From: a virus
Virus record (IMG/VR): IMGVR_UViG_3300045988_144812
Span: 64,001-128,000 of that record
Strand: one strand, 5' to 3'
Length of the DNA: 64,000 nucleotides
The notes beneath the pieces are model-generated. The model did no database searches, was not told where the DNA came from, and worked only from the letters and a program-made list of their open reading frames with translations. The position numbers and the translations under genes are program-made. Shown here one piece after another: positions 20,085 to 61,116 of the stretch (positions are counted from its first letter, which is position 1; the number at the start of each line of letters is the position of its first letter).

Positions 20085-20168
20085 TGGTGGAGGGAGTAGG
20101 ATTCGAACCTACGAACCTTTCGGGGCGGATTTACAGTCCGCTGGATTTAACCACTCTCCAATCCCTCC
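20085..20168 (-). tRNA. tRNA-Tyr (anticodon GTA), class II with a long variable arm, CCA encoded
   Basis: Cloverleaf built by hand. Acceptor GGAGGGA/TCCCTCC. Anticodon stem GCGGA/TCCGC with loop CTGTAAA. T arm GTAGG-TTCGAAT-CCTAC. 3-bp D stem. Confidence 0.9.
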
Positions 20169-38313: not shown

Positions 38314-38403
38314 ATGGGTGTAGTTGTAGAAGAAGTAATGCCAATGTTCGGTGATGAAGCTGAACAAGGTCAACAACAAGACAGTGATGAAGAAAAGGAG
38401 TAA
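38314..38403 (+). CDS. 29-aa acidic upstream ORF
   Basis: RBS AAGGAG and an ATG. Its last codons contain the nrdB RBS. Confidence 0.3.
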
Positions 38404-38407
38404 AAAA

Positions 38408-39175
38408 ATGGAATTAGGTGAAAAAACAAAACCAATGAAGTTCTCTGTATTTAATCAGACCCCTAATGACGCTACTAAAGAACAAATGTTCTTAGGCCAG
38501 TCTATTAACTTACAGCGATACGATAAGTCTAAATACCAGACTTATAATGATTTGTCAGAAAAACAAAAATCATTCTTCTGGCGACCTGAAGAAGTAGACT
38601 TGTCTAAAGACCGTATCGATTTTGAAGGTTTACCAGAAAATGAGAAACACATTTTTCTACGTAATCTGGATTATCAATCACTTTTGGATTCGATTCAAGG
38701 AAGAAGTCCGGCTATTGCATTTCTTCCTCTAATTTCTATTCCTGAATTAGAGAACTGGACAATTGCTTGGGATTTCTTTGAATCAATTCACTCTTACTCT
38801 TATACGTATATCATGCGTAATGTATTAATTGATCCTAGTGAAGAGTTTGATAATATTGTAGTAAATGAAGAAATTAAGAAACGAGCAAGAGCGATTTCTC
38901 AATACTACGATGACTTGATTATGTATAGCCAATATTATAATCTTTTTGGAGAAGGAGTTTTTGAAGTTAATAAACAAGCAAAAGATTATAAAATGTATTT
39001 TCATCATCGTATTGAGATTAGCAAACGAGAACTGATGAAAAAGCTTTATCTTTGTATGTTCGTAGTGAATGTACTTGAAGCCATTCGTTTTTATGTATCG
39101 TTTGCATGTAGTTTTAGTTTTGCTGAACGTAAACTCATGGAAGGTAATGCCAAGATCATTAAACTTATTGCCCGT
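38408..39175 (+). CDS. nrdB: ribonucleotide reductase small subunit, exon 1
   Basis: [23 protein letters not shown] and [13 protein letters not shown] motifs. The reading frame leaves RNR-like sequence after ...KLIAR. Confidence 0.85.
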
Positions 39176-39481
39176 AAACTTCGTTGCGGCTTCTACCAGT
39201 GATGGTAGTCGAATAACTCTGTTAAACGGGGAAACTCTAATATAGACAATCCCGTAGTAAAGACGTTTAAATTATATTAGTATAATTTAAACTGACAAAC
39301 TCTAACGACTATCGAAATCCTAATTATTAGAGAGAGTAGAGTAGTGGACAATCGTTTAGTTCGCCAAACGCAGAGGGTCTGTATTAATTACAGATCATGA
39401 TATAGTCTGACCCCAGTAGTGATATTGGGCGGGTGTCTTAAGCACACCGGCTACGATTAACGACCGTAGTGGACAGCTTCG
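39176..39481 (+). ncRNA. group I intron (no internal ORF) in nrdB
   Basis: Joining 39175 to 39482 restores in-frame ...IAR|DEALH.... Exon 1 ends in T and the intron ends in G. A P1 pairing (CCGU with GCGG) is possible. Confidence 0.75.
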
Positions 39482-39904
39482 GATGAAGCACTTCATTTAA
39501 CTACCACTCAACACATTATTAACACACTAGCTTCTGGTGCTGAAGGTGAAGAATGGAAACAGATTGCTGAAGAAACTAAAGAAGAATGTATTAATATCTT
39601 TAAAGAAGCAGCTCAACAAGAAAAAGATTGGGCTAAGTATTTATTTAAAGATGGCAGTATGATTGGCTTGAATGAAACTATTCTTTGTCAATATGTCGAA
39701 TACATTACCAATCATCGCATGAAGGCGGTAGGATTAGATCCTATATTCCCAGATGCTAACCATAATCCAATTCCTTGGATTAATGCTTGGTTAACTTCTG
39801 ATAATGTACAAGTCGCACCTCAAGAAGTGGAGATTTCATCTTATCTCGTTAGCCAAGTAGACAGCAATGTTAGTAAAGATGATCTTGGTGGTATTGAACT
39901 TTAA
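39482..39904 (+). CDS. nrdB: ribonucleotide reductase small subunit, exon 2
   Basis: Starts [13 protein letters not shown]..., in frame with track ORF 39659-39904. Confidence 0.8.
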
Positions 39905-39911
39905 CTGATTA

Positions 39912-39972: not shown

Positions 39973-40464
39973 ATGTTACCGACTATTTCAGATTGTCCTA
40001 AATATAGCCATGCTTATTTATTCAGACTGAATCCTATTAATCAATTTCTGATTAAAAAGTATCCTAGAGAAGAAGACAATAGCTTCTTAGCAAGATACTG
40101 GACGGCTTATCTTTTTGCGTCCTATATTCTTATAGATAATAATTACTCGGATAAAATAGCACCTATGGTTGTTACACCTGAAGAATTCTATAAAATTCCA
40201 AATCCAAGCATCAGTAGCTGTTTTAACGAATGGTTAGAGATGTATAAGAAAGATCGAATATTCAAATCGACTTTTGTCATGGATAGTATTCCTGGGGTTT
40301 CAGAACCTATCTTTATTGAAGTTGATCCTATTCCTGAAGATGCTGTTATTGCATTTACTGGAATGTTAGACAAAATTAAAACAGATGGGATGATCAGTCA
40401 GAAAGACATTGAAAAGGAAATTGAAGATGGACTCGATATACTTCAGAATGGTGGAACTTGTTGA
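39973..40464 (+). CDS. hypothetical protein
   Basis: RBS TAGGAGAA; 163 aa. Confidence 0.7.
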   Translation: MLPTISDCPKYSHAYLFRLNPINQFLIKKYPREEDNSFLARYWTAYLFASYILIDNNYSDKIAPMVVTPEEFYKIPNPSISSCFNEWLEMYKKDRIFKSTFVMDSIPGVSEPIFIEVDPIPEDAVIAFTGMLDKIKTDGMISQKDIEKEIEDGLDILQNGGTC

Positions 40465-42370
40465 TTTAATCAATAAATATTCCTATCATTACTATACCTT
40501 AGATGATCCTTTGGTTTCAGATAAGGAATACGACAAGCTTTATAAGGAACTCTCTCAATTAGAGGAACAACATCCTGACTTAGTGTTAGATGATTCCCCT
40601 GTTAAGAGAATAGGAGATAAAGTTTCACCTACTTTAAGTAAGGTCAAGCATAAACACATTATGGGTTCTTTAAAGAACTGTTTTGATGTAAATGATCTTA
40701 ATAAGTTCTTTTCATTTCTACCGAATCAAACAGAACTCATGGTCCAGTCTAAGTTCGATGGTTTGGCATTAGAGTTAGTTTATCGACAAGGTAAATTAAT
40801 TTCAGCCTCTACTCGTGGTGACGGGTTTATTGGTGAAGATGTGTTAAAGAATGTATTGACTATAACTTCTATTCCTAAAGAAATTCCTATTCAGAAAGAA
40901 ACTATTGTTTATGGCGAGGTCTTGATGTTCATAGATGTTTTTAATCAACTGAATCAAGAACGACTAGCTAGAGGAGAGAAACCCTTTTCTAATCCTCGTA
41001 ATGCTGCCGCAGGGTCATTGAGACAATTAGATCCAGAAATTACTCGTCGACGTCAATTACAATTCATTCCATATACAATAGAACCTAAACAAACCTATAA
41101 ATCTTATTCAGAAATGACCAGTGCTTTATCTAGACTAGGTTTCAATACTTTTGTAAAAGGTATTGTTACTTATCCTTTAGATAAAGAAGTATTAAGCAAG
41201 ATTGTTTCTGAGCATAAGGTTACTCGTAAAACAGATCAGTACGATACGGATGGTATTGTATTTAAGGTAAATGATTTAAGTTATGCGAAACCTAATGAAG
41301 GTAAATTACCTAATTGGGCTTGCGCGTTTAAATTAGACCCAGAGTCAGAAACTACCCAAGTCGTTGATATTGTCGTACAGATTGGTAGAACAGGAGCGAT
41401 CACACCCGTTGCTATTCTTACACCAGTATTAGTATCAGGTTCAATAGTTTCTAGAGCAACTCTAAACAATGCTTCTTTTATTAAGCAGCTAGATGTAAGA
41501 ATTGGTGATTTTGTACAAGTAAGAAAAGCAGCAGAAATCATTCCTGAAATTATTTCTGTGGATTTAGACAAGAGAGATCCTGATAGTAAACCATTTGTCT
41601 TTCCAGATAAATGTCCATGTTGTCAATCTCAACTAGTTACAGAAGAAACCATTACTCGTTGCATGAATAAAGAATGTGAAGAACAGCTAATCCAGAACAT
41701 ATTGCATTTTGCTTCGCGGGATGGAATGGATATTAAAGGCGTGGATGAATTCATTATTCGAGCTTTATTTAAAGCGAAAGCAATTTATTATCCAATTCAT
41801 TTATACCATCTGTCTTTAGAAGATTTAGAAAAAGTATTAGGTAAAGGATTAACTGCTAAAAATGCTTTTGAAGCTATTGAAGCTTCTAGATATACGACTC
41901 CTGAGAAATTCTTATATTCCTTAGGAATCCGTTTCGTAGGTGAAAGAATGTCTAAGCTTTTATTAAAAGAGTATAAAGACATTATGCGTTTATTAGACGT
42001 TACTTACGAGGAATTAGTAAATCTAGAAGGTGTAGGACCTATAAAAGCTAAAGCCATTTACGAATATCTTTCTAATCCAAAGAATCGTGATTTGGTTCTA
42101 AACTATTTAGTAGAATTTAAGTTTAAGAAAGAAAAGAAGCTTTCTAATAAATTAGATCAGAAGACATTCTTGATTACCGGTACGTTAACCAGACCTAGAA
42201 AGGAAATAGAGAAGCTGATTACGGATAATGGCGGTACAATGTTATCGTCAGTTAGTAGTAAGCTAAACTATTTAATTGTAGGTGAGAATGCCGGATCGAA
42301 ATTAGAGAAAGCTAAGAAGTTAGGTATTGAAATCATTGAAGAAAAAGATTTAAATGATTTCTTAAAGTAA
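40427..42370 (+). CDS. ligA: NAD-dependent DNA ligase
   Basis: YYTLDDPLVSDKEYDKLY, the adenylation motif SKFDGLA, a Cys4 zinc finger (CPCCQSQL...CMNKEC), an HhH region, and a C-terminal BRCT-like FLITGTL. Confidence 0.9.
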   Translation: MDSIYFRMVELVDLINKYSYHYYTLDDPLVSDKEYDKLYKELSQLEEQHPDLVLDDSPVKRIGDKVSPTLSKVKHKHIMGSLKNCFDVNDLNKFFSFLPNQTELMVQSKFDGLALELVYRQGKLISASTRGDGFIGEDVLKNVLTITSIPKEIPIQKETIVYGEVLMFIDVFNQLNQERLARGEKPFSNPRNAAAGSLRQLDPEITRRRQLQFIPYTIEPKQTYKSYSEMTSALSRLGFNTFVKGIVTYPLDKEVLSKIVSEHKVTRKTDQYDTDGIVFKVNDLSYAKPNEGKLPNWACAFKLDPESETTQVVDIVVQIGRTGAITPVAILTPVLVSGSIVSRATLNNASFIKQLDVRIGDFVQVRKAAEIIPEIISVDLDKRDPDSKPFVFPDKCPCCQSQLVTEETITRCMNKECEEQLIQNILHFASRDGMDIKGVDEFIIRALFKAKAIYYPIHLYHLSLEDLEKVLGKGLTAKNAFEAIEASRYTTPEKFLYSLGIRFVGERMSKLLLKEYKDIMRLLDVTYEELVNLEGVGPIKAKAIYEYLSNPKNRDLVLNYLVEFKFKKEKKLSNKLDQKTFLITGTLTRPRKEIEKLITDNGGTMLSSVSSKLNYLIVGENAGSKLEKAKKLGIEIIEEKDLNDFLK

Positions 42371-45701: not shown

Positions 45702-45720
45702 AATACATTAAAAATATAAT

Positions 45721-45763
45721 CCCCTACTCCTGATAACACAGGAGTAGGAGATATTTTTTTTTT
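45721..45763. terminator. bidirectional terminator between convergent genes
   Basis: CTCCTACTCCTG/CAGGAGTAGGAG, with T10 on the + side and a T-rich tract on the - side. Confidence 0.75.
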
Positions 45764-45765
45764 AA

Positions 45766-47571
45766 TTAGATTTTACAAGCACCACCAGCACAACCATCAT
45801 CCAGACTATCTTGAGTATCATTAGATCCATCGTTTGTATGGTGATAGTACAATGTTTTAATACCATACTTATACGCAATCAACAATTCCTTCAATAGTTC
45901 TTTCATAGGTACTTTGCCATTAGGATAATTGATAGGATTATAACGAGTATTCGTAGAAATAGATTGATCTACAAATTTTTGCATAATCGCTACTAATTTT
46001 AACATTCCGATATTGTTACTGTCGTACCACAAGTATTCGTAACTAGAATCTAAATTCTTATAATCAGGAACGACTTGTTTTAAAATACCATCTTTAGAAG
46101 CTTTAATCGTAATAGGACCACGAGGTAAATCAATACCATTAGTGGCATTACTTACTTGACTACTGCTTTCAGAAGGCATTAGACTAGTCAGCGTAGCATT
46201 ACGTAAACCATATTGGACAATATCCTTACGCAAGCTTTCCCAATCTAATTTATATTCAAACGAAGCATATTCGTCGATAGACTTTTTATAAGTGTCTATT
46301 GGTAAAACGCCTTTAGAATATTTAGTGTTTTCAAACGCACCACACTTACCTTTTTCTTTGGCTAATTGTACTGATGATTTTAATGCATAGTACTGAATAG
46401 CCTCGAATAATTCATGAGTCATCTGATGACCACTGCTATTACTATACCGAGCACCATTCTTAGCTAAGTAATAAGCGTAGTTAATCACACCAATACCTAA
46501 TGGACGATACTTATCTACAGAATTACGAGCTGCTTTAACAGGATAGTTTTGATAGTCTAATACAGAATCAAGAGCACGTACAATTAAGTCCATAGACTCT
46601 TCAATCTCTTCAAGATTATCTTTATCCACTGTACCCAGATTCAAAGCACCTAGAGTGCACAAAGCAATTTCACCTTCTTCATCAGAAATATTGTTTAATG
46701 GCTTGATAGGTAAACCAATTTCCATGCAGTTACCAGTCATGATGTTGTTAAATACAACAGAGTTATTTTTTGGTTCAAATACACAGAATGTATCGTGTTT
46801 ACCATCTAACTTTGTAACTGATTTTACAATAGACTGGTCTACTTTAATAATACCTAATTGAGTCGATGGGGTATTCCATTTAGACAGTTTCACACCATGA
46901 ACTAATTCTTTAGTAGGTATACGAGTACCATCTTCAAGAATCCATTTATGTTCACTAGTACAATCTAAATAACGACCATCTACTAATTCTACACGATATA
47001 AATCTTGATCAGTATTTGTTTTAACAAACTCAATACCTTCAGACCATTCAAAACCATTCCAGATAGTGAATTTCTCACCAATATAATCGCCAATCTTAAC
47101 CATGCCTTTATCAGTTAATACTTCGGTATCTCCTGAAACACACAAGTTACTGGTATAAATAGTTGCTTCTTTTTCAATAAATGAAGAATGGGTATTCATG
47201 TGGTCAGTATTCATGATGTAAATACGACCAGTATTAGCACGCTCTGACATCAACAATGTAAACAATTCAGTAGCTTTAATAGTCTTCTTAGGAATAAGAG
47301 GATTTGCTTCAGCTTCTAAATAAAGTTTTTCAAATAACTCTTGGTCGTTAAAGTAAGCATCGTATAAACCCTCTACAGAATGAGGTGACAATAAAGTAAT
47401 GTCTTTATCTTCAATCAGACGCTGATACATTAATTTATTAATCTGCACACCGTAATCCAATTGGCGAATACGGTTGTCTTCTACACCACGGTTATTTTTT
47501 AATACCAGTAATGATTCTACTTCTAAATGCCAGATAGGGTAAAATAAAGTTGCAGCACCACCACGAATCCC
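45766..47571 (-). CDS. nrdA: ribonucleotide reductase large subunit, exon 2 (contains the mini-intein)
   Basis: GIRGGAATLFYPIWHLEVESLLVLKNNRG ... GACKI is colinear with E. coli NrdA, apart from a 138-aa insertion at SNL|C. Confidence 0.9.
   Translation of the reverse strand, partial: GIRGGAATLFYPIWHLEVESLLVLKNNRGVEDNRIRQLDYGVQINKLMYQRLIEDKDITLLSPHSVEGLYDAYFNDQELFEKLYLEAEANPLIPKKTIKATELFTLLMSERANTGRIYIMNTDHMNTHSSFIEKEATIYTSNLCVSGDTEVLTDKGMVKIGDYIGEKFTIWNGFEWSEGIEFVKTNTDQDLYRVELVDGRYLDCTSEHKWILEDGTRIPTKELVHGVKLSKWNTPSTQLGIIKVDQSIVKSVTKLDGKHDTFCVFEPKNNSVVFNNIMTGNCMEIGLPIKPLNNISDEEGEIALCTLGALNLGTVDKDNLEEIEESMDLIVRALDSVLDYQNYPVKAARNSVDKYRPLGIGVINYAYYLAKNGARYSNSSGHQMTHELFEAIQYYALKSSVQLAKEKGKCGAFENTKYSKGVLPIDTYKKSIDEYASFEYKLDWESLRKDIVQYGLRNATLTSLMPSESSSQVSNATNGIDLPRGPITIKASKDGILKQVVPDYKNLDSSYEYLWYDSNNIGMLKLVAIMQKFVDQSISTNTRYNPINYPNGKVPMKELLKELLIAYKYGIKTLYYHHTNDGSNDTQDSLDDGCAGGACKI
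46729..47142 (-). mobile_element. mini-intein (138 aa, no endonuclease domain) at the catalytic Cys of NrdA
   Basis: Begins CVSGDTEVL, has TSEH (block B), and ends ...FNNIMTGN followed by C. Removing it restores SNLCMEIGLP (E. coli SNLCLEIALP). Confidence 0.8.
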
Positions 47572-47929
47572 CAAATACCTTCAATACGAGTCGTTAATTC
47601 GTATTCTACCAATTAAGATAGCTCTATGTCACCATAGACGTTGAGACTATATCTTCTTCTCCAGCATTACCTGGTAAGATTCCAAACATCAGGAAACTAC
47701 ATAGAGGATTACATTAATCCACTGTAGTAGTCGCTCTATTTCCCCAAACTCCGTTACAGAGACCTCACTTGAGTGGTACGTCTTTCGACTAGTCGTTGAA
47801 CCTTCCCTAGATGTATTTATATACAATTAGGTATTGGCTGCTGATTGTCTATACTTTAATATAGATTTCCCAGCAATTAAGAGCGATATTTTTAACTCTG
47901 TATTTCTACAGAGCTGGGCAGGATTGTTT
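47572..47929 (-). ncRNA. group I intron (no homing endonuclease ORF) in nrdA
   Basis: Joining 47930 to 47571 restores ...KSCSQG|GIRGGAAT. Exon 1 ends in U and the intron ends in G. A P1 pairing (GGGU with GCCC) is possible. Contains GNRA hairpins. Confidence 0.75.
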
Positions 47930-50080
47930 ACCCTGGGAACATGATTTAACTGCAGCTTGAAACATTTTCCAAAATGGAATAACGCCAGTATGGATAGCTT
48001 CACCTTTACGAATTTCACTACCTAATGCACGAATACGACCACCATTAATACCAATTCCAGCACGTTGAGAAATATACTTAACAATAGAGGAAGTAGCTGC
48101 ATTAATACTATCCAGACTATCGTCACAATCAATTACAGTGCAGTTATGTACTCCGATACTACCGGCAGTAAATGAATGTTCATTTTCTACTTCGATATCG
48201 TAAACCATCGGGTTAGTCTCATTAAGTAAATGAATGGCTAAGGTAACTTTAGAGAAACAATAACCATCTTTAAAGACGACATTATTTCTTATATACTTAG
48301 AATGTTCTTCAGATCCAGGAACTGTAACCATTACTGAACTTTCTAAATAATTCGCGTATCTTGCTTCATCATTACCTAAATATTCTTTTATAAGACTTAC
48401 ATTAGAACCGATTGAGAAGAATATTAAGTAACTTACCTCTCTAGTAATAACCTCAGAAATTGCTCCATTTGCTCTTACAACAGGGACTTGTTTACCAGGT
48501 TCTCTGAATGAGACACTGGGTTTTAATCCCAAACGTAGAGATATTTCAGTAAGTTGTTTAGATAGGAATTTATTACTTAGGCTTATAGTGATTCCTCTAC
48601 CGTCTAAAAAACCATCGGTTTCAATAACACCTAGCAACAAACTTAATTGTTTGTCGTGTTCCGAATTCATTACTTCTTTACTGATTTTCTTCTTATTGAA
48701 ACCAGTACCGAGATGATAAAGAATGAATTCTTTAAATACGTAGGAGTGTACTGATACTTTGCAACTATGGTCGTTGTCGTTATAGTTAACAGAACAATTT
48801 AAACCGAAGTTATCTTTTATAGTGTTAACTATAAATTCGATCTTATGCTTATCTTTAGCATTCATGGTAAACGCCACACAATGCACATTTTTATCACAAT
48901 GACCGTTTCCAATATACATACCCATTAATCTAAATATATCGTTATTTAAAACAATATCATTTTTAACAGGTTTTATCTTATCATCGTACTCACCCGACCT
49001 AACACGTACGTCTGATGTGGTTTTACGAATATAGCCATCATCACAAAGAGTATATCTTGGATTGTTTACATAATCGATCATTCTAATATTAGTGAATGGA
49101 ATGATTTCATTATTAAAAGGAATAGAAACATAATCACCTATTTTAATATCTTTAGCTTCCACCCATTTAGGCTCTGACTCACCTTTAGGCAAGGTCCAAA
49201 CAAGATGGTCTTCTGTAGACAAGAAATCATTTCGATGACTTAATGTCGATTTTAACTTGATGAAATTTTCACCAGTATATTGTCGGCATGTAAGTGTTTT
49301 TACAGGAGAGAACGACCCTTCCTTAGTTAAAACCATATCTCCAACATTTACATCTTCGATATATTTGTAACCTTCGCTAGTAAGTACTTGCTGGTCAGCA
49401 GGGAAACAACTACTAAACTGACGAGTAGGTGTACGTACACCTGCCATGATTGGAGTAGGCAATGAAATCTTAAACAATGACAAAGCATCGTAGAATTTCT
49501 TAATATATCCTAAACGAGTTTCTTTAGGGTAGTCAGCAAACAAACAAGTAGGAATTAAAACAAAAGCTACTTGAGGAGATTCGTACACTCGTTTAGTCAC
49601 TCGGTTTTGCACCAAGTATTTACTTTCCATTTGTTTAATACCGGCATAAGCGAAATTTAAATCTCGGGTATGGTCTACAAAGGACTCAATGGCATTAATT
49701 TCTTCCTCGGTGTATTTCTCTAAAATCTCTTTATCGTAAACACCTTTTTCAATCATTGACTGAATATGTTTATATAATCGAGTAGGTACGTATTCACCAT
49801 AAGCAATCTTACGAATATGGAACAGTGCTAAACGCGCAGCCATGTACTGATAATCGGGATATTCTGTAGAGATTAAATCAGCAGCAGATTTTACCAATGT
49901 TTCATGGATATCGGTAGTTGAGATACCATTATAGAATTGAATATGACTATTGATTTCTACTTGGGAACTAGAAACATCTAAACATTCAGCAGCCCATTCT
50001 ACTACACGGTGAATTTTAGCAATATCCAATGGTTCAAAATGGCCATCGCGTTTCTTTACTTTAATTTTTTGTTCAGTCAT
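47930..50080 (-). CDS. nrdA: ribonucleotide reductase large subunit, exon 1 (contains the LAGLIDADG intein)
   Basis: ATP-cone N-terminus, then PTPIMAGVRTPTRQFSS|C ... C|TVIDCDDSLDSINA...KSCSQG, colinear with E. coli NrdA. Confidence 0.9.
48143..49408 (-). mobile_element. intein (422 aa) with a LAGLIDADG-type endonuclease domain
   Basis: Begins CFPADQQVLT, has TEDH (block B), LMGMYIGNGH and LLLGVIETDGFLDG, and ends YDIEVENEHSFTAGSIGVHN followed by C. It sits at the position of E. coli Cys225. Confidence 0.85.
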
Positions 50081-56454: not shown

Positions 56455-57789
56455 TTACTTGAACTGTTGTCTAGGATAGTTATAACCAAGGTATAGATAT
56501 TCAGTATATCGACCTTTCCATTTTTTATATAATTCAGATTTAACAAATGAAACATAGTCGATAATAAGATAATGTTCAGTAACATAGAAACGATTAACTG
56601 CTACATTTCTTAAATTATCTCTAGATAAGTGTTTTAATTCATCTATTAGAGAAAGTTTAATTCTGGAATCAGGAAGCAGTATAATAGGAAATCCACTACC
56701 ATCTTTATTTAGAATAACATAAGTTCTACTACTCCAAGTAGTTGCTAATTCGTATACTGGATCTAACTTATCAGGCGTTTTCCATTCTGAAAAATCATCA
56801 ATTCTTTTAATCCGTTGCAGATTACTCAGAATAGGTTGATTTGTCTTCTCTAACATCTTCTTCAGACTAGATAAAGTAATCCCAGTTTCTTTATAGTAAT
56901 CAGTAAGACTACGATAAGTCTTCTCGATGAATTGATTGGTCTTATAATCAATTACAACGATAGGATGTACAATACCACCTCCTTTTTTAACATAGATAGT
57001 GGGTTTCTCAAACTCAGGATCCTCTAGATACTTTACCTGAGTATCGTCAGGCCACATAATCTTCATGTAGTTAGGATCATCTAACCTCTGCCCAATAGTA
57101 GTCTCGTGATAACCCATATATCTAGAAGCATCTATCATGGAATCAAAACTTCTTACTACTCCTCCTTCATTATGGAATTTAATCGATACTTTCTTAGTAG
57201 TCGTAATGAGATTATTTCTTACGGCATGGTGGACGTTTTCAGAATTGGTGATAACCTCTAGATTACACAAATCATTATTCTGTTTATTCCCATCAATGTG
57301 ATTAACAACATATCTTACTCCGTCAATACTATCAAGACCATTATGTTTAGTAACCTTAGCATAATCTTCAGGTCTAAATGTAGCTAGTAATAGGTGATGC
57401 ATTTTCTTAGTCTTTTTCTCCCCGTTATCACCTATTAAAGACAGTACCGTATAGCCATTTCTACCCACAACAGTTCCCATCAATTTATGGTATTTCTTAC
57501 CAAATATCCTACCATCTTTACTAATAAGATAACCAGTATATCCAGGTATTTCTTTAAATTCACTAAAGTCTAGATTCTGATACTCTAATTCTTTAAACAA
57601 TTTAGGAACAGTAATCCATTCTCTTGTATCTGGATCTAAATAGTTATTTCCAGTTATAAACTTATTTCTTATTGTAGAATAAACTTGTTTAGTTTTAGGA
57701 TTTAGCCAAACATAACGGCATCTCTTACTATTTATAAATCCCAATGATTCTAAATCTTCAACAGTATAAATTTTCTTAATAGGTTTCAT
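56455..57789 (-). CDS. free-standing HNH homing endonuclease
   Basis: YTGYLISKDGRIFGK is a NUMOD4-like motif. VNHIDGNKQNNDLCNLEVITNSENVHHA is an HNH motif. Followed by repeated HTH-like modules (SMIDASRYMGYHETTIGQRL, SLTDYYKETGITLSSLKKML). Confidence 0.8.
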   Translation of the reverse strand: MKPIKKIYTVEDLESLGFINSKRCRYVWLNPKTKQVYSTIRNKFITGNNYLDPDTREWITVPKLFKELEYQNLDFSEFKEIPGYTGYLISKDGRIFGKKYHKLMGTVVGRNGYTVLSLIGDNGEKKTKKMHHLLLATFRPEDYAKVTKHNGLDSIDGVRYVVNHIDGNKQNNDLCNLEVITNSENVHHAVRNNLITTTKKVSIKFHNEGGVVRSFDSMIDASRYMGYHETTIGQRLDDPNYMKIMWPDDTQVKYLEDPEFEKPTIYVKKGGGIVHPIVVIDYKTNQFIEKTYRSLTDYYKETGITLSSLKKMLEKTNQPILSNLQRIKRIDDFSEWKTPDKLDPVYELATTWSSRTYVILNKDGSGFPIILLPDSRIKLSLIDELKHLSRDNLRNVAVNRFYVTEHYLIIDYVSFVKSELYKKWKGRYTEYLYLGYNYPRQQFK

Positions 57790-57962: not shown

Positions 57963-58838
57963 TCATTTGAACTGTTGGCGCGAAATGTTTCGGACAGTTT
58001 CCCCAAATGACATCCTAGACGCGGCTACCATGCTATCGAGACCAATGTTGGAATGTATAGCTTCTTCATGATACGCATTCGCGTTGATTAATTTAATACT
58101 GTCAAGGAATTTTTGAGCAAAGAAGTCAACACCAGGACCGTAGTGATAAATACCAGTAAATTCAATTTGAATTTCACGAGTTTCAGAAGGGTTTTCTTTA
58201 TCGTGTTTGGCTTCATTATCACCAGAAGATTTAGGCCACATGTTGATACCGATCCATGATTGAACCACTTTAGTCATGGTTGCGTTAGGTTCGATAAACA
58301 ACATAGACATGGAATACATGTCAGGCATTGCATCGTAATCTTGAGTACCAGCTACTGTTGAAATGGAAGCATATTTAGTTTCCATATTCATCATCAGCAT
58401 TTCGATCCAGTAACGCATGTAGCGACCGATAGCCAAACCTGGACGTTCCCAGAAAGACATAGAAACGTTCAATGGATCTTCAGTCACGTTAGTGAATACT
58501 TCGTATTTTTGACCTGAACCACCAAATGCTTGGTTTTGGTCAGTGGCTACAGTGAGCTTGTGTCCCAAACCAGTAATACGGTGACGAATGGTTTCTACCA
58601 GGCTACGCAAGATAGCGATATGGACTTTACCATCAGGAAGAAGTTTAAAGCCAAGAGGAGCTTCCAAAAGAAAACTAATCAGCGGACGAGAAGTGTATGG
58701 AGTGTTATTAATCCAAGCAGCCCATTGTTTAGCATAACCGAAGTTACCACCCTCGATAAGACCTACAACAGGAGCCTGAATACCATCAGCAAAACCGCCC
58801 GTATTTTTAGACATAAAAACGGGTTCAATACGTGCCAT
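57963..58838 (-). CDS. probable tail tube protein
   Basis: 291 aa, directly after the sheath-like gene on the same strand. Codon use of the highly expressed genes. The size and order match the phiKZ gp29/gp30 arrangement as I remember it. Confidence 0.4.
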   Translation of the reverse strand: MARIEPVFMSKNTGGFADGIQAPVVGLIEGGNFGYAKQWAAWINNTPYTSRPLISFLLEAPLGFKLLPDGKVHIAILRSLVETIRHRITGLGHKLTVATDQNQAFGGSGQKYEVFTNVTEDPLNVSMSFWERPGLAIGRYMRYWIEMLMMNMETKYASISTVAGTQDYDAMPDMYSMSMLFIEPNATMTKVVQSWIGINMWPKSSGDNEAKHDKENPSETREIQIEFTGIYHYGPGVDFFAQKFLDSIKLINANAYHEEAIHSNIGLDSMVAASRMSFGETVRNISRQQFK

Positions 58839-58905: not shown

Positions 58906-61116
58906 TTAGGCGCTAATGCCGCTGAAATTTTCAGGCTTATCTTCGCGACGATAGTTTTCACTGTAGAACGTTTGAACAGTTTTGATGTTGTCGCCGTATA
59001 CACGTGCAACAAAGTGCCAAGACCAAGAACGTTCGGTATCGATAGCAGTGAAGTACAACTCACCTTGAACCTCAATAGTACCACCAAATTTATTGTCTTT
59101 AATTTGGGAGTAGAACCAAGATTCAGCTTCTTGTTTCAGACGCAGTTGTGACCAGTCTTTACCGGAGAAGCGACGACGCAATTCAGCACCAATTTTGTTC
59201 AACTCAACATGGAACAACATGATACGAGCATTCATCAAGGTAGAAGAGTAATCTTCGTAAATGGTACGAATCATCGGGAAGTAGAAGCGACCAGATTCGC
59301 TACGTTCTACCCACATACCGCCAGCAGCCCACGCTTCGTTACGTTGGATGTAAGGTACCCATGGGTTAGAGATATCAGTCAGATAACGCAGATAGTTGTT
59401 ATCACCTTCGGTAGGATCCCAACGAGCATCGGCACGACCAATTTTAGCACCCCAGTATTTAGTAAACAAACGACAGATCTCGTAAGATACTGGAACACGT
59501 TTTTCGTAACTAGATACAGAAGAACGGAAACGACCACTACCACGGATAACCATAGCACGGAATGTTTCAGTACCAAATACTGCAGAATCAGGAGCCAGTT
59601 TCAAACGGTTACGGATGGCTGCCAAACGAGCAATCTCTTCAGCAGCAGTAATGATACCTTCACCAGATACATGAGTGGTAGCACACACCCAACGGTCTTT
59701 ACGGTTAACCAGGTACTTGTTCAGATTGAATTTAGTTTCAATTGGATAACCAGTATCGTAGAAGACAGAATCGTTATAAGTAGTGTCATCCATGTAACGG
59801 CTGTTAGCGTCAGCAAACTCATCGAGCATTGCATCAACAGCAGCAGCAAACAACTCATCAGACATCTCACCATCAGTACCGCCAGTAGACCATTGTACTG
59901 AACCTTCACGCAAAGCAGTTACTTCACCTTCAGTAGTAGAGATGTTGTCAGAATTACGGAAAGTTTGGTAAGGACGACCGTCAGAGTGAGTACCAGTAAA
60001 CAAGTTAAACAGATATTTAGAGTCTGCTTTGTTTTCTTCAGTTACAGCAGCAAAGTCACCGTAGTAACGAGTGGTATTTTCCATCTCGCCAGTCTGAGGA
60101 TTCAGAGTCGGAACTTGAGTACCAGATACATCCAATTCTTTTTGCATGAAAAGAGAAAGGATGCTGTCGATGTTTGCTTGGTAAACGTGAATGTTGCTGA
60201 AAGAACCGAAAGTTGCAGGAAGATTAGGTTCGTCAGGACGATTGTTATTGTAATGTTTTACAAAAGTTTCGCCCAAGTAGTAACGAACACCTACTTTAGA
60301 AACAGCACCTGGTTTCAAACAGAAATCGATTTCACGAGCACCTTTAGTTGTAGTTTCTACAACTTTATTGCTGGTAGCGTTAGGTTTAGTAAATACTTGA
60401 AGACGGAATGGGTAAGAATTTGTATCGCTAAAAGCGATAGTATTCAAAGGAGCTTGGTCAGTGGTCTTAGGTGCCCAGATGGAAATACCGGTTAAATTAC
60501 CCCAAGCACCAGGAGAGCTGGTTTCGAAGTCAAAGATTGGAAGACGCTTACCAACTACACCATTGACAGCAAAGTCAACTTGATTAGTTGCACCTTTACC
60601 CAAACCAGAACTAGATACAGTTCGGCTAGCCAAAGTAATTTGTTCTGGTTTCAGTTCTTCCAAAACCCAACGGTAAGTAATACCAGGAACTTTACGACCT
60701 GTAGATACTTTCTTACCACGGTCTAAACGGAATTGACCAGAAGCATCACGCTCGTATTCATCTACTTCTACTTCGACGTACTCGATAGACAGACGCATAC
60801 CGGCTTTACGCATAGCGTTTTCAGGAACGATACGTTTAGCGATAATGGTACCACTATCTTGCAACATGCCTTCGATGAAGACAGAAGAGTGGTTGTAGTA
60901 CTTGTGGAGAGGATCCAAAGTCTTGTTACCGAAGAGCTTAATAAATGCTTCACCGTCGACAACTACTTCCTCGGTAGGACCTTTTTCAGCGTAGAATGGG
61001 CAAAAAGCCATATGTGGTGCACGCGGAGTGGCGACAACGGATTGAGGTCTACCGGACATATCCTTAGTACCCAGGTGGAAACTGTGGGGTGTAGGATTAT
61101 TAATGTAGATATCCAT
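58906..61116 (-). CDS. probable tail sheath protein (a major capsid protein is not excluded)
   Basis: 736 aa, G+C-richer with strongly biased codons, followed by a ~32 kDa gene. No diagnostic motif was verified. Confidence 0.45.
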   Translation of the reverse strand: MDIYINNPTPHSFHLGTKDMSGRPQSVVATPRAPHMAFCPFYAEKGPTEEVVVDGEAFIKLFGNKTLDPLHKYYNHSSVFIEGMLQDSGTIIAKRIVPENAMRKAGMRLSIEYVEVEVDEYERDASGQFRLDRGKKVSTGRKVPGITYRWVLEELKPEQITLASRTVSSSGLGKGATNQVDFAVNGVVGKRLPIFDFETSSPGAWGNLTGISIWAPKTTDQAPLNTIAFSDTNSYPFRLQVFTKPNATSNKVVETTTKGAREIDFCLKPGAVSKVGVRYYLGETFVKHYNNNRPDEPNLPATFGSFSNIHVYQANIDSILSLFMQKELDVSGTQVPTLNPQTGEMENTTRYYGDFAAVTEENKADSKYLFNLFTGTHSDGRPYQTFRNSDNISTTEGEVTALREGSVQWSTGGTDGEMSDELFAAAVDAMLDEFADANSRYMDDTTYNDSVFYDTGYPIETKFNLNKYLVNRKDRWVCATTHVSGEGIITAAEEIARLAAIRNRLKLAPDSAVFGTETFRAMVIRGSGRFRSSVSSYEKRVPVSYEICRLFTKYWGAKIGRADARWDPTEGDNNYLRYLTDISNPWVPYIQRNEAWAAGGMWVERSESGRFYFPMIRTIYEDYSSTLMNARIMLFHVELNKIGAELRRRFSGKDWSQLRLKQEAESWFYSQIKDNKFGGTIEVQGELYFTAIDTERSWSWHFVARVYGDNIKTVQTFYSENYRREDKPENFSGISA

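Follow-up and report, generated by a model that had tools for sequence, protein, structure and literature searches.

A phage nrdA gene with three putative self-splicing insertions in its conserved catalytic motifs

The nrdA locus and its predicted processed product

The window analysed here is a 64,000-nucleotide (nt) stretch of viral DNA, positions 64,001 to 128,000 of IMG/VR record IMGVR_UViG_3300045988_144812, and its minus strand carries an nrdA gene for the alpha subunit of class Ia ribonucleotide reductase (RNR) that is interrupted three times. Two minus-strand open reading frames (ORFs) cover the gene. ORF1 (47906-50080, 724 amino acids (aa)) has Pfam matches to the ATP-cone, the RNR all-alpha domain (Ribonuc_red_lgN) and positions 1-74 of the RNR barrel, plus Hint and homing-endonuclease signals, and ORF2 (45766-47574, 602 aa, nominal TTG start) matches the RNR barrel (Ribonuc_red_lgC) at positions 74-523. 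An earlier note, made from the sequence alone, had read the two as a single nrdA invaded by a LAGLIDADG intein, a group I intron and a mini-intein. Its observation is confirmed, the coordinates of all three elements being reproduced to the base by script, and its interpretation is supported by the evidence below. The features are as follows; names beginning with L denote related loci or alleles and those beginning with P related proteins.

45766-50080, minus strand: nrdA, class Ia RNR alpha subunit, complete with three inserts and stop codon (ORFs, Pfam, PDB match)
49409-50080, minus strand: extein segment 1, NrdA residues 1-224, ending ...RQFSS (joined to segment 2 in the intein-less allele L003)
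48143-49408, minus strand: intein 1, 422 aa, CFPADQ...GVHN then Cys, with endonuclease domain (domain matches, 1266-nt indel)
48902-48928, minus strand: LAGLIDADG motif 1, LMGMYIGNG, intein residues 161-169, Asn for the expected catalytic Asp
48611-48637, minus strand: LAGLIDADG motif 2, LLGVIETDG, intein residues 258-266, canonical Asp
47930-48142, minus strand: extein segment 2, residues 225-295, CTVIDC...KSCSQG, last base U47930 being the 5' splice-site uridine
47572-47929, minus strand: group I intron, 358 nt, ORF-less, last base G47572 (Rfam, indel against L001 and L003, covariation)
47916-47925, minus strand: internal guide sequence AAUCCUGCCC, AAUCCU for P10 and GCCC for P1 (read from sequence)
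47143-47571, minus strand: extein segment 3, residues 296-438, GIRGGAAT...TSNL
46729-47142, minus strand: mini-intein, 138 aa, CVSGDTEV...IMTGN then Cys, without endonuclease domain (414-nt indel against L001, homology)
45766-46728, minus strand: extein segment 4, residues 439-758, CMEIGLP...GGACKI and stop codon
45719-45752, strand not assigned: GC-rich hairpin with T-runs on both strands, directly downstream of the nrdA stop codon

Removing the three inserts leaves an NrdA of 758 aa, of which residues 4-758 align to class Ia NrdA structures with 1147 bits against PDB 7mdi and 1119 bits against E. coli R1 (2r1r). There are 0 gaps at all three junctions in the 7mdi alignment, and the colinearity with E. 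coli NrdA that had been claimed after three removals is borne out by alignments to both structures that have no gap at the junctions. None of the 1318 codons is a stop, all six junctions keep the reading frame, and the junction nucleophiles of both inteins (Cys1, Cys+1 and terminal Asn) are intact. In the processed protein, the +1 residues of intein 1 and the mini-intein are residues 225 and 439, the equivalents of E. coli Cys225 and Cys439, known from established RNR biochemistry as the redox cysteine and the thiyl-radical cysteine. The nrdA exteins are under strong purifying selection, with ratios of nonsynonymous to synonymous change (omega) of 0.006-0.05, and the hairpin at 45719-45752 is likely a bidirectional terminator.

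Natural alleles supply empty sites for each element. The 90%-identity clusters of the ORF1 and ORF2 proteins include length variants that serve as deletion controls provided by nature: intein 1 is present in P0003 (1180 aa), where KSCSQGGIRGGAAT and SNLCMEIALP are uninterrupted, and P0006 (900 aa) reads RQFSSCTVIDC without interruption and retains the mini-intein. Aligned as DNA with the syntenic loci L001 and L003, the window shows indels of exactly 1266 nt (against L003), 358 nt (against both) and 414 nt (against L001) at the positions given above, with a 1-nt sliding ambiguity in their placement, and the empty intein 1 site in L003 and L013 reads ...CAATTTAGTAGCTGTACTGTAATTGAC.... The spliced junctions predicted in the earlier note are therefore those that alleles lacking each element already carry.

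The group I intron and the two inteins

The insert at 47572-47929 matches Rfam RF00028 over the full model length (1-253) with 85.8 bits against a gathering score of 50, and the E value of 1.8e-21 excludes a chance match. Because the Rfam alignment ran the 5' end of the model into the exon, we set the intron boundaries by pairing rules. The 5' exon ends in ...CAGGGU (U47930), and its GGGU pairs with intron GCCC to form P1, with a U.G pair at the splice site; P1 is invariant in four alleles of the clade defined below, and the same pairing occurs in Vibrio phage BONAISHI. Directly 5' of GCCC, AAUCCU pairs over 6 bp with the start of the 3' exon, GGGAUU, to form P10. The window codons GGU and GGG are thus exactly the bases that P1 and P10 require; two intron-less alleles carry synonymous GGA/GGC and GGC in their place. 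We rejected an alternative P1 (CAGGGU/AUCCUG, with U-A at the splice site), which has no U.G pair and is impossible in L010.

An explicit structure comprising P1, P2, P3, P7, P7.1, P7.2, P8, P9, P9.1, P9.2 and P10 was scored on an alignment of four sequences, the window and three other intron-bearing alleles. Standard pairs fill 99.7% of alignment cells, compared to 36-47% in slid controls, and double-sided changes occur in 15 pairs, compared to 0-1 in every slid control. Two of these 15 compensatory pairs lie in P10 and come from L010 (G-C to C-G and G-C to A-U), the other 13 are held by P2, P7.1, P8, P9, P9.1 and P9.2, and P3 and P7 are invariant. P4-P6 were left unscored because their architecture differs between intron types. 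The helices between P7 and the 3' strand of P3 (P7.1 and P7.2) are typical of subgroup IA, to which the intron would then belong. Together, P1, P10, the terminal G, the Rfam score and the strong covariation uphold the assignment of this segment as a group I intron. In L010 (from L010:6032 onward), exon 2 starts with GCA (Ala) and not GGG (Gly), giving a predicted SCSQG-AIRGG in a very conserved loop. The 3' exon there is GCAAUU and the guide sequence is changed to match, so that exon and ribozyme appear to have co-evolved.

These features bear directly on whether the 358 nt are removed at all. If they stayed unspliced, ORF1 and ORF2 would be translated separately and assemble non-covalently, as in the functional split nrdA of phage Aeh1 (PMC3045599, PMC2677866), and two features of the locus are compatible with this: ORF1 stops at an in-frame TAG (47906-47908) after 8 codons of the insert, and the TTG of ORF2, with a weak GAAGG upstream, could serve as a start. 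However, that GAAGG lies only 3 nt from the TTG, whereas all 14 other starts checked (14/14) are ATG, mostly with AAGGA 6-10 nt upstream, and no separate normal start signal was found for ORF2. The break would cut a conserved loop within the catalytic barrel instead of separating domains, and no terminator-like site was found inside the gene (0 sites), the strong hairpin coming only after the stop codon. Moreover, a mere spacer has no need of an entire group I ribozyme whose core helices are conserved and whose pairs show 15 compensatory changes, nor of a P1, P10 and terminal G that put the splice sites at a codon boundary restoring SCSQG/GIRGG. The locus thus differs from the Aeh1 type, with its two halves under their own translation signals and no splicing element, and we consider a split gene highly improbable.

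The intron also has a larger counterpart. At the same site, L011 (L011:5652-6768), and likewise L026 and L059, carry an intron of 1117 nt in which 735 extra nt in the P6 loop, flanked in L011 by a TTTAA direct repeat, encode a 230-aa HNH/NUMOD4 protein (Pfam HNH_3 33.2, cut-off 24.8; NUMOD4 28.7, cut-off 23.4). The L010 intron is otherwise near-identical to that of L011 and lacks the 735-nt insert, so the endonuclease gene looks like a cassette that is gained and lost separately. Since a sister intron carries the HNH ORF, the window intron is best seen as the endonuclease-less form of a mobile intron, a refinement of the earlier note. Extra DNA also lies at the intron site in distant loci, 339 nt in L079 and 1540 nt in L076-78 and L084. 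A blastn search found no close sequence relative of the window intron beyond the conserved core; its matches were short core matches in unrelated genes, such as a capsid gene, and were not accepted as orthologous introns. When the whole gene was compared by megablast with 50,697 phage records, no closely related genome came up; the only matches were to Vibrio phage VAP7, at 77% in one exon stretch, and over 37 nt of the intron core.

Intein 1 has the junction residues of a class 1 intein, with C1, a block B T65-E-D-H68 (S-T-E-D-H), H421-N422 and Cys+1, all invariant in five alleles. Searched alone, it exceeds the curated cut-offs of Pfam Hint (30.0, cut-off 29.7), Pfam Hom_end PF05204 (26.3, cut-off 21.1) and NCBIfam intein_Cterm TIGR01443 (25.1, cut-off 15.6), and it stays under those of Pfam Intein_splicing (31.8, cut-off 35.8), LAGLIDADG_2 and LAGLIDADG_3. 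With its two dodecapeptide motifs, 97 residues apart, this agrees with the claim of a LAGLIDADG intein at 48143-49408. A further refinement is that motif 1 has Asn where the catalytic Asp is expected, so an acidic residue closes only the second motif; in P0023 and P0024, the two distant relatives that a word-indexed search of about 5.8 billion proteins returned, motif 1 has Asp. The substitution makes full double-strand cleavage by intein 1 uncertain, and it touches the endonuclease, not splicing. The central domain has an omega of 0.084 at a synonymous divergence (dS) of 1.13, which indicates an endonuclease domain kept by purifying selection, with no decay.

The history of intein 1 differs from that of its flanks. 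Between L011 and L012, dS is 0.86 in the N-extein, 0.012 in intein 1 and 0.69 in the extein between intein 1 and the intron; between the window and L001, the corresponding values are 0.78, 0.085 and 0.30. These values indicate an intein much younger than its host gene. A dS so far below that of the flanking exteins suggests homing, a recent lateral transfer in which short tracts were converted, and this transfer is independent of the intron just 213 nt away. None of 53 more distant loci (0/53) has an insert at the intein 1 site. It is conceivable, if rather unlikely, that intein 1 defines an RNR insertion site, at Cys225, that is occupied only in this phage clade and driven by a LAGLIDADG enzyme with one naturally Asn-substituted active site.

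The mini-intein has C1, a block B T62-S-E-H65, N138 and Cys+1, with about 24 aa between its splicing halves and no endonuclease domain. It scores 35.1 against NCBIfam intein_Nterm TIGR01445 (cut-off 24.5), so that both inteins, in the comparison with intein profile models that the earlier note had proposed, pass at least one NCBIfam cut-off. Pfam matched nothing of it within ORF2 and, when it was searched alone, gave just 14.5 bits for Intein_splicing. PDB matches are to the DnaE intein (E = 8e-5) and, with a family profile, to gp41-1 (1.9e-5). Homology at the same site is clear from the 329-aa intein of Pseudoalteromonas phage PH357 (KX822733, L009), to which the N-terminal 97 residues are 41% identical (E = 2e-18) and the last 22 residues 50%. 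Like the mini-intein, that intein sits at SNL/C and has Cys1, T-x-x-H-K-W, a Cys at block F position 4 (F:4) and a Thr at G:5; unlike it, the PH357 intein has two LAGLIDADG motifs in a domain of about 210 aa and ends in Gln, where the window copy has a 24-aa linker and ends in Asn. The reading of 46729-47142 as a mini-intein stands on this homology together with the intein_Nterm score and the DnaE and gp41-1 similarity.

The homologue at the thiyl-radical cysteine (thiyl-site) in L010 has 241 aa, and close alleles of the mini-intein have 138, 140, 142 and 147 aa, differing mainly in the linker that takes the place of the endonuclease domain. Inserts at this site across the clade measure 387-432, 723 or 999-1017 nt. 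The size series of 329, 241, 147 and 138 aa fits a progressive loss of the endonuclease domain. Mini-intein dS (0.80) is similar to that of its flanks (0.65 and 0.38) and its splicing blocks have omega values of 0.11 and 0.01, a combination that appears to fit vertical inheritance of an element still needing to splice.

The mini-intein belongs to a large family. A word-indexed protein search with the mini-intein alone returned a single match, and when 1.84 billion cluster representatives were searched exhaustively with HMMER, 1666 relatives emerged at E <= 1e-3, 722 of them at E <= 1e-10. The top 150 HMMER proteins contain 185 intein copies, 111 of which lie directly before the thiyl-radical Cys (SNL/C in class I and xNP/C in class II RNR), and 46 of the 107 thiyl-site copies with measurable length are no longer than 160 aa. 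Dassa et al. 2009 (PMC2677866) found this Cys to be the most frequent insertion point for contiguous RNR inteins. The C-terminal residue varies at this one site, being Asn in the window and Gln in L010 and PH357, and Gln is commoner than Asn among the 185 relatives. Many relatives (P0026-P0175) are proteins of 1300-2100 aa with three to five intein-like stretches and, in those with flanks listed, one stretch usually lies at the RNR thiyl-Cys motif. This pattern suggests RNR genes with several inteins at once, and metagenomes may often hold RNR genes that have been invaded three or more times.

Some residues of this family recall class 3 inteins, which are defined by a WCT triplet and the lack of an N-terminal nucleophile (PMC2807308, PMC3196547). 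The triplet is present in the mini-intein as W67 (B:12), C120 (F:4) and T136 (G:5), and is invariant in a 6-member family alignment. The profile from this alignment best matches 6riz, a gp41-1 engineered to F65W and D107C, at 27.8 bits versus 22.2 for the wild type, and the family Trp, Cys and Thr align onto F65W, D107C and T123 of that structure; the class 3 structures 6bs8 and 6rix gave no match to the profile even at E <= 10. Cys1 occurs in 185 of 185 related copies and Cys at F:4 in 172 of the 172 that could be aligned there, Thr at G:5 is nearly universal among related copies, and +1 is Cys in every aligned copy. Hence, the family shares the WCT positions with class 3 inteins (Tori et al. 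2010, PMC2807308) but keeps Cys1, where class 3 inteins have no N-terminal Cys, Ser or Thr, and has Cys at +1, where they usually have Ser or Thr. By sequence it groups with the class 1 inteins gp41-1, DnaE and DnaB. We did not adopt class 3 membership for the mini-intein, since Cys1 is universal, +1 is Cys and the nearest solved inteins are class 1.

Residues common to 185 copies are traits of a large class-1-like family, not an oddity of the window copy, and this holds for both departures that refine the earlier note, the missing penultimate His and the Cys at block F position 4. A penultimate His occurs in 11 of about 171 aligned family copies, with G, A, S, Y or K as the usual residue. Splicing without this His is documented (Chen, Benner and Perler 2000, cited in PMC8772380; PMC5050341). 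This RNR-associated family, with at least 1666 cluster representatives, thus joins an invariant Cys1 to a class 3-type F:4 Cys and G:5 Thr, often with the B:12 Trp; as a rule it has no penultimate His, it ends in Asn or Gln and it has Cys at +1. It is conceivable, although we think it rather unlikely, that such a mix of Cys1 and class 3-type residues reflects a transition, which a structural study by Beyer et al. 2020 (PMC7664689) argued to be implausible. The 138-aa window copy would be a compact natural test case.

The state of both inteins also bears on whether nrdA might be a decaying pseudogene, in which some element no longer splices, the gene is non-functional and the phage relies on host RNR. 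The Asn for Asp in intein 1 motif 1 and the Gly for penultimate His in the mini-intein could be taken as signs of decay, and degenerating intein-filled nrdA genes have been reported in Campylobacter phages (PMC3653736). However, the motif 1 Asn is irrelevant to splicing and a non-His penultimate residue is the rule in the mini-intein family, while the 1318 open codons, the intact splice-junction nucleophiles, the low omega of exteins (0.006-0.05) and intein splicing blocks (0.01-0.11) and the recurrence of identical proteins on 5 contigs each all speak for a gene in use. A pseudogene is thus very unlikely.

Occupancy across alleles and the proposed splicing pathway

A scan of IMG/VR yielded 73 related loci. 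We define the clade as 26 alleles of at least 66% identity, window included, with occupancy taken from tblastn matches chained over the three junctions; repeated sampling of one phage may account for some of these contigs. The states found, in the order intein 1, intron and thiyl-site intein, are these:

present, present, present: 3 alleles (window, L010, L071)
present, present, absent: 2 alleles
present, absent, absent: 2 alleles
absent, present, present: 10 alleles
absent, present, absent: 2 alleles
absent, absent, present: 4 alleles
absent, absent, absent: 3 alleles, fully uninvaded

Seven of the eight possible combinations are therefore present, and only intein 1 with the thiyl-site intein and without the intron was not seen among the 26 alleles. 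The intein 1 site is empty in 19/26 and the mini-intein site in 9/26. That seven of eight states occur shows that the three elements are independent, separable insertions.

A population so polymorphic at all three sites can confuse assemblers, and a contig chimeric for different alleles would then mimic a triply invaded gene. However, proteins identical to ORF1 and to ORF2 have each been recorded on 5 contigs, up to about 248 kb long, which makes a single-assembly artefact unlikely; L010 and L071 are independently triply occupied, and the frame is kept over six junctions. Taken together, these points leave an assembly artefact barely credible.

Thus, we conclude, with a probability of roughly 0.88, that the window holds one functional nrdA invaded by three independent self-splicing elements at catalytically essential, highly conserved sites. 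Under this reading, the nrdA of a jumbo phage of about 248 kb would be transcribed as a single pre-mRNA, from which the 358-nt intron would remove itself by guanosine-initiated two-step transesterification, with P1 setting the 5' splice site and P10 and the terminal G setting the 3' site. The exons ...KSCSQG and GIRGGAAT... would be joined in frame and translated into a 1318-aa precursor. Intein 1 would then be excised at ...FSS/C...HN/C and the mini-intein at ...SNL/C...GN/C, which would restore Cys225 and Cys439 as +1 residues and set free the 758-aa NrdA. Each element would persist in its own way. Intein 1, with its LAGLIDADG-type endonuclease, would have moved recently between diverged nrdA alleles by homing; the intron, as an ORF-less copy of an HNH/NUMOD4 intron, is probably mobile only in trans or by recombination; and the mini-intein, having lost its endonuclease domain, would persist through vertical inheritance, as an imprecise loss would ruin an essential gene.

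Several points weigh against this conclusion. Splicing, of RNA and of protein alike, is inferred from sequence. P1 is just 4 base pairs long, and the covariation draws on four sequences of two intron types, scored on a structure derived from the window sequence itself. In intein 1, the motif 1 Asn recurs in 5/5 alleles, one of them diverged to dS of about 1.1; a PDB profile search with the endonuclease domain, PI-SceI included, found nothing significant (E 0.12-0.7), and the low dS could instead reflect recombination independent of its own endonuclease. The mini-intein has no match to NCBIfam intein_Cterm, and Gly137 stands where a penultimate His would be. AlphaFold2 models of both inteins are of low confidence, with a pLDDT of 46.1 for intein 1 from a 7-sequence alignment and 39.5 for the mini-intein from its single sequence. 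A Foldseek search with the low-confidence intein 1 model placed TliVMA, PI-SceI and PI-PfuI on top (E 3e-7 to 7e-5, TM-scores of about 0.2), a likeness that lends weak support to the endonuclease assignment.

Genome context and comparison with known systems

The phage is tailed, with a genome of about 248 kb and a tail sheath 26-30% identical to those of Burkholderia, Ralstonia, Xanthomonas, Erwinia and Pseudomonas jumbo phages. Other features of the window are the following:

38351-39907, plus strand: nrdB, RNR small subunit, with exon 1 at 38351-39174, intron at 39175-39481 and exon 2 at 39482-39907
40409-42370, plus strand: NAD-dependent DNA ligase gene just downstream of nrdB, with adenylation, OB-fold, HhH and BRCT domains
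56455-57789, minus strand: free-standing HNH endonuclease gene, 444 aa (PHROG 59; Pfam HNH_3 30.1)
20088-20168, minus strand: tRNA gene (Rfam RF00005, 58.5 bits)

The nrdB intron is a 307-nt group I intron (Rfam 56.9 bits, gathering score 50) that splits KLIAR/DEALH, a region we take to be the iron-ligand motif of E. coli R2. With it, both RNR subunit genes of this phage are invaded. The 163-aa ORF at 39973-40464, between nrdB and the ligase gene, has no Pfam match. The free-standing HNH gene is a probable further homing element in the window; it adjoins a virion structural protein gene (57963-58838), with the tail sheath gene (58906-61116) nearby.

Gene callers report this nrdA as a 724-aa "hypothetical protein" and a 602-aa RNR fragment, and recognising the three elements restores one intact essential gene for annotation. 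The clade is a natural experiment as well: seven of the eight occupancy states occur, and a single gene shows the homing cycle at three stages, with intein 1 actively spreading, the intron present with and without its HNH gene, and the thiyl-site endonuclease domain caught at 333, 241 and 138 aa. Birkholz et al. 2024 (PMC11620839) found that intron-encoded endonucleases of jumbo phages mediate competition between co-infecting phages, and the polymorphic nrdA elements may thus shape which genotypes win in mixed infections. The compact mini-intein may also interest protein engineers. The finding does not overturn present understanding; what it offers is improved annotation and a natural population that displays stages of homing.

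Multiply invaded RNR genes are already documented, and the window nrdA adds to these. Liu, Yang and Meng reportedly described in 2003 a Trichodesmium RNR gene with four inteins and three group II introns. Among phages, the comparison with SPbeta RNR genes drawn in the earlier note is confirmed by Dwivedi 2013 (PMC3653736), which summarises Lazarevic et al. 1998 and 2001: nrdE of the Bacillus subtilis prophage SPbeta has an intron and an intein, and its small-subunit gene nrdF has an intron too, like nrdB here (39175-39481). In contrast to the class Ib nrdE of a temperate phage of Gram-positive bacteria, with one intein, the window has a class Ia nrdA of a jumbo phage, with two inteins and an intron. 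The same work lists two introns in nrdE of Twort and two putative inteins in nrdA of a Campylobacter phage (PMC3653736). In Pectobacterium phage CB7, one RNR gene has a LAGLIDADG intein and a group I intron with HNH, and the other an intron and an endonuclease-free intein, with RNA splicing established by reverse transcription PCR (PMC7344957); its elements are spread over two genes and its introns hold HNH ORFs, whereas here three elements share one gene and the intron is ORF-less. Aeromonas phage Aeh1 likewise has an nrdA interrupted by a mobile element (PMC3045599), but there a free-standing HNH gene splits it into two translated genes without splicing, whereas the window has a complete ribozyme.

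For the intron, the td, nrdB and nrdD introns of phage T4 are also self-splicing, lie in genes of nucleotide metabolism, have extra P7-P3' helices and exist in ORF-containing and ORF-less forms, but they occupy different host-gene sites. A nearer parallel is the nrdA of Vibrio phage BONAISHI (MH595538), where a 454-nt insert at CCSQG/GVRKG (L008:1386-1839, about 230429-230882 of the record) is annotated as two coding sequences (ORF232 and ORF233) and has an Rfam group I match of 32.2 bits (E = 2e-6), under the gathering score. It shares with the window the identical site CSQG/G, the P1 GGGU/GCCC and core sequences, and differs in its length, its peripheral elements (a MAFFT global alignment of the two introns has large peripheral indels) and the absence of inteins from its nrdA. 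The 454 nt are thus probably a group I intron so far unrecognised in a public record, at the very site where the window nrdA is interrupted.

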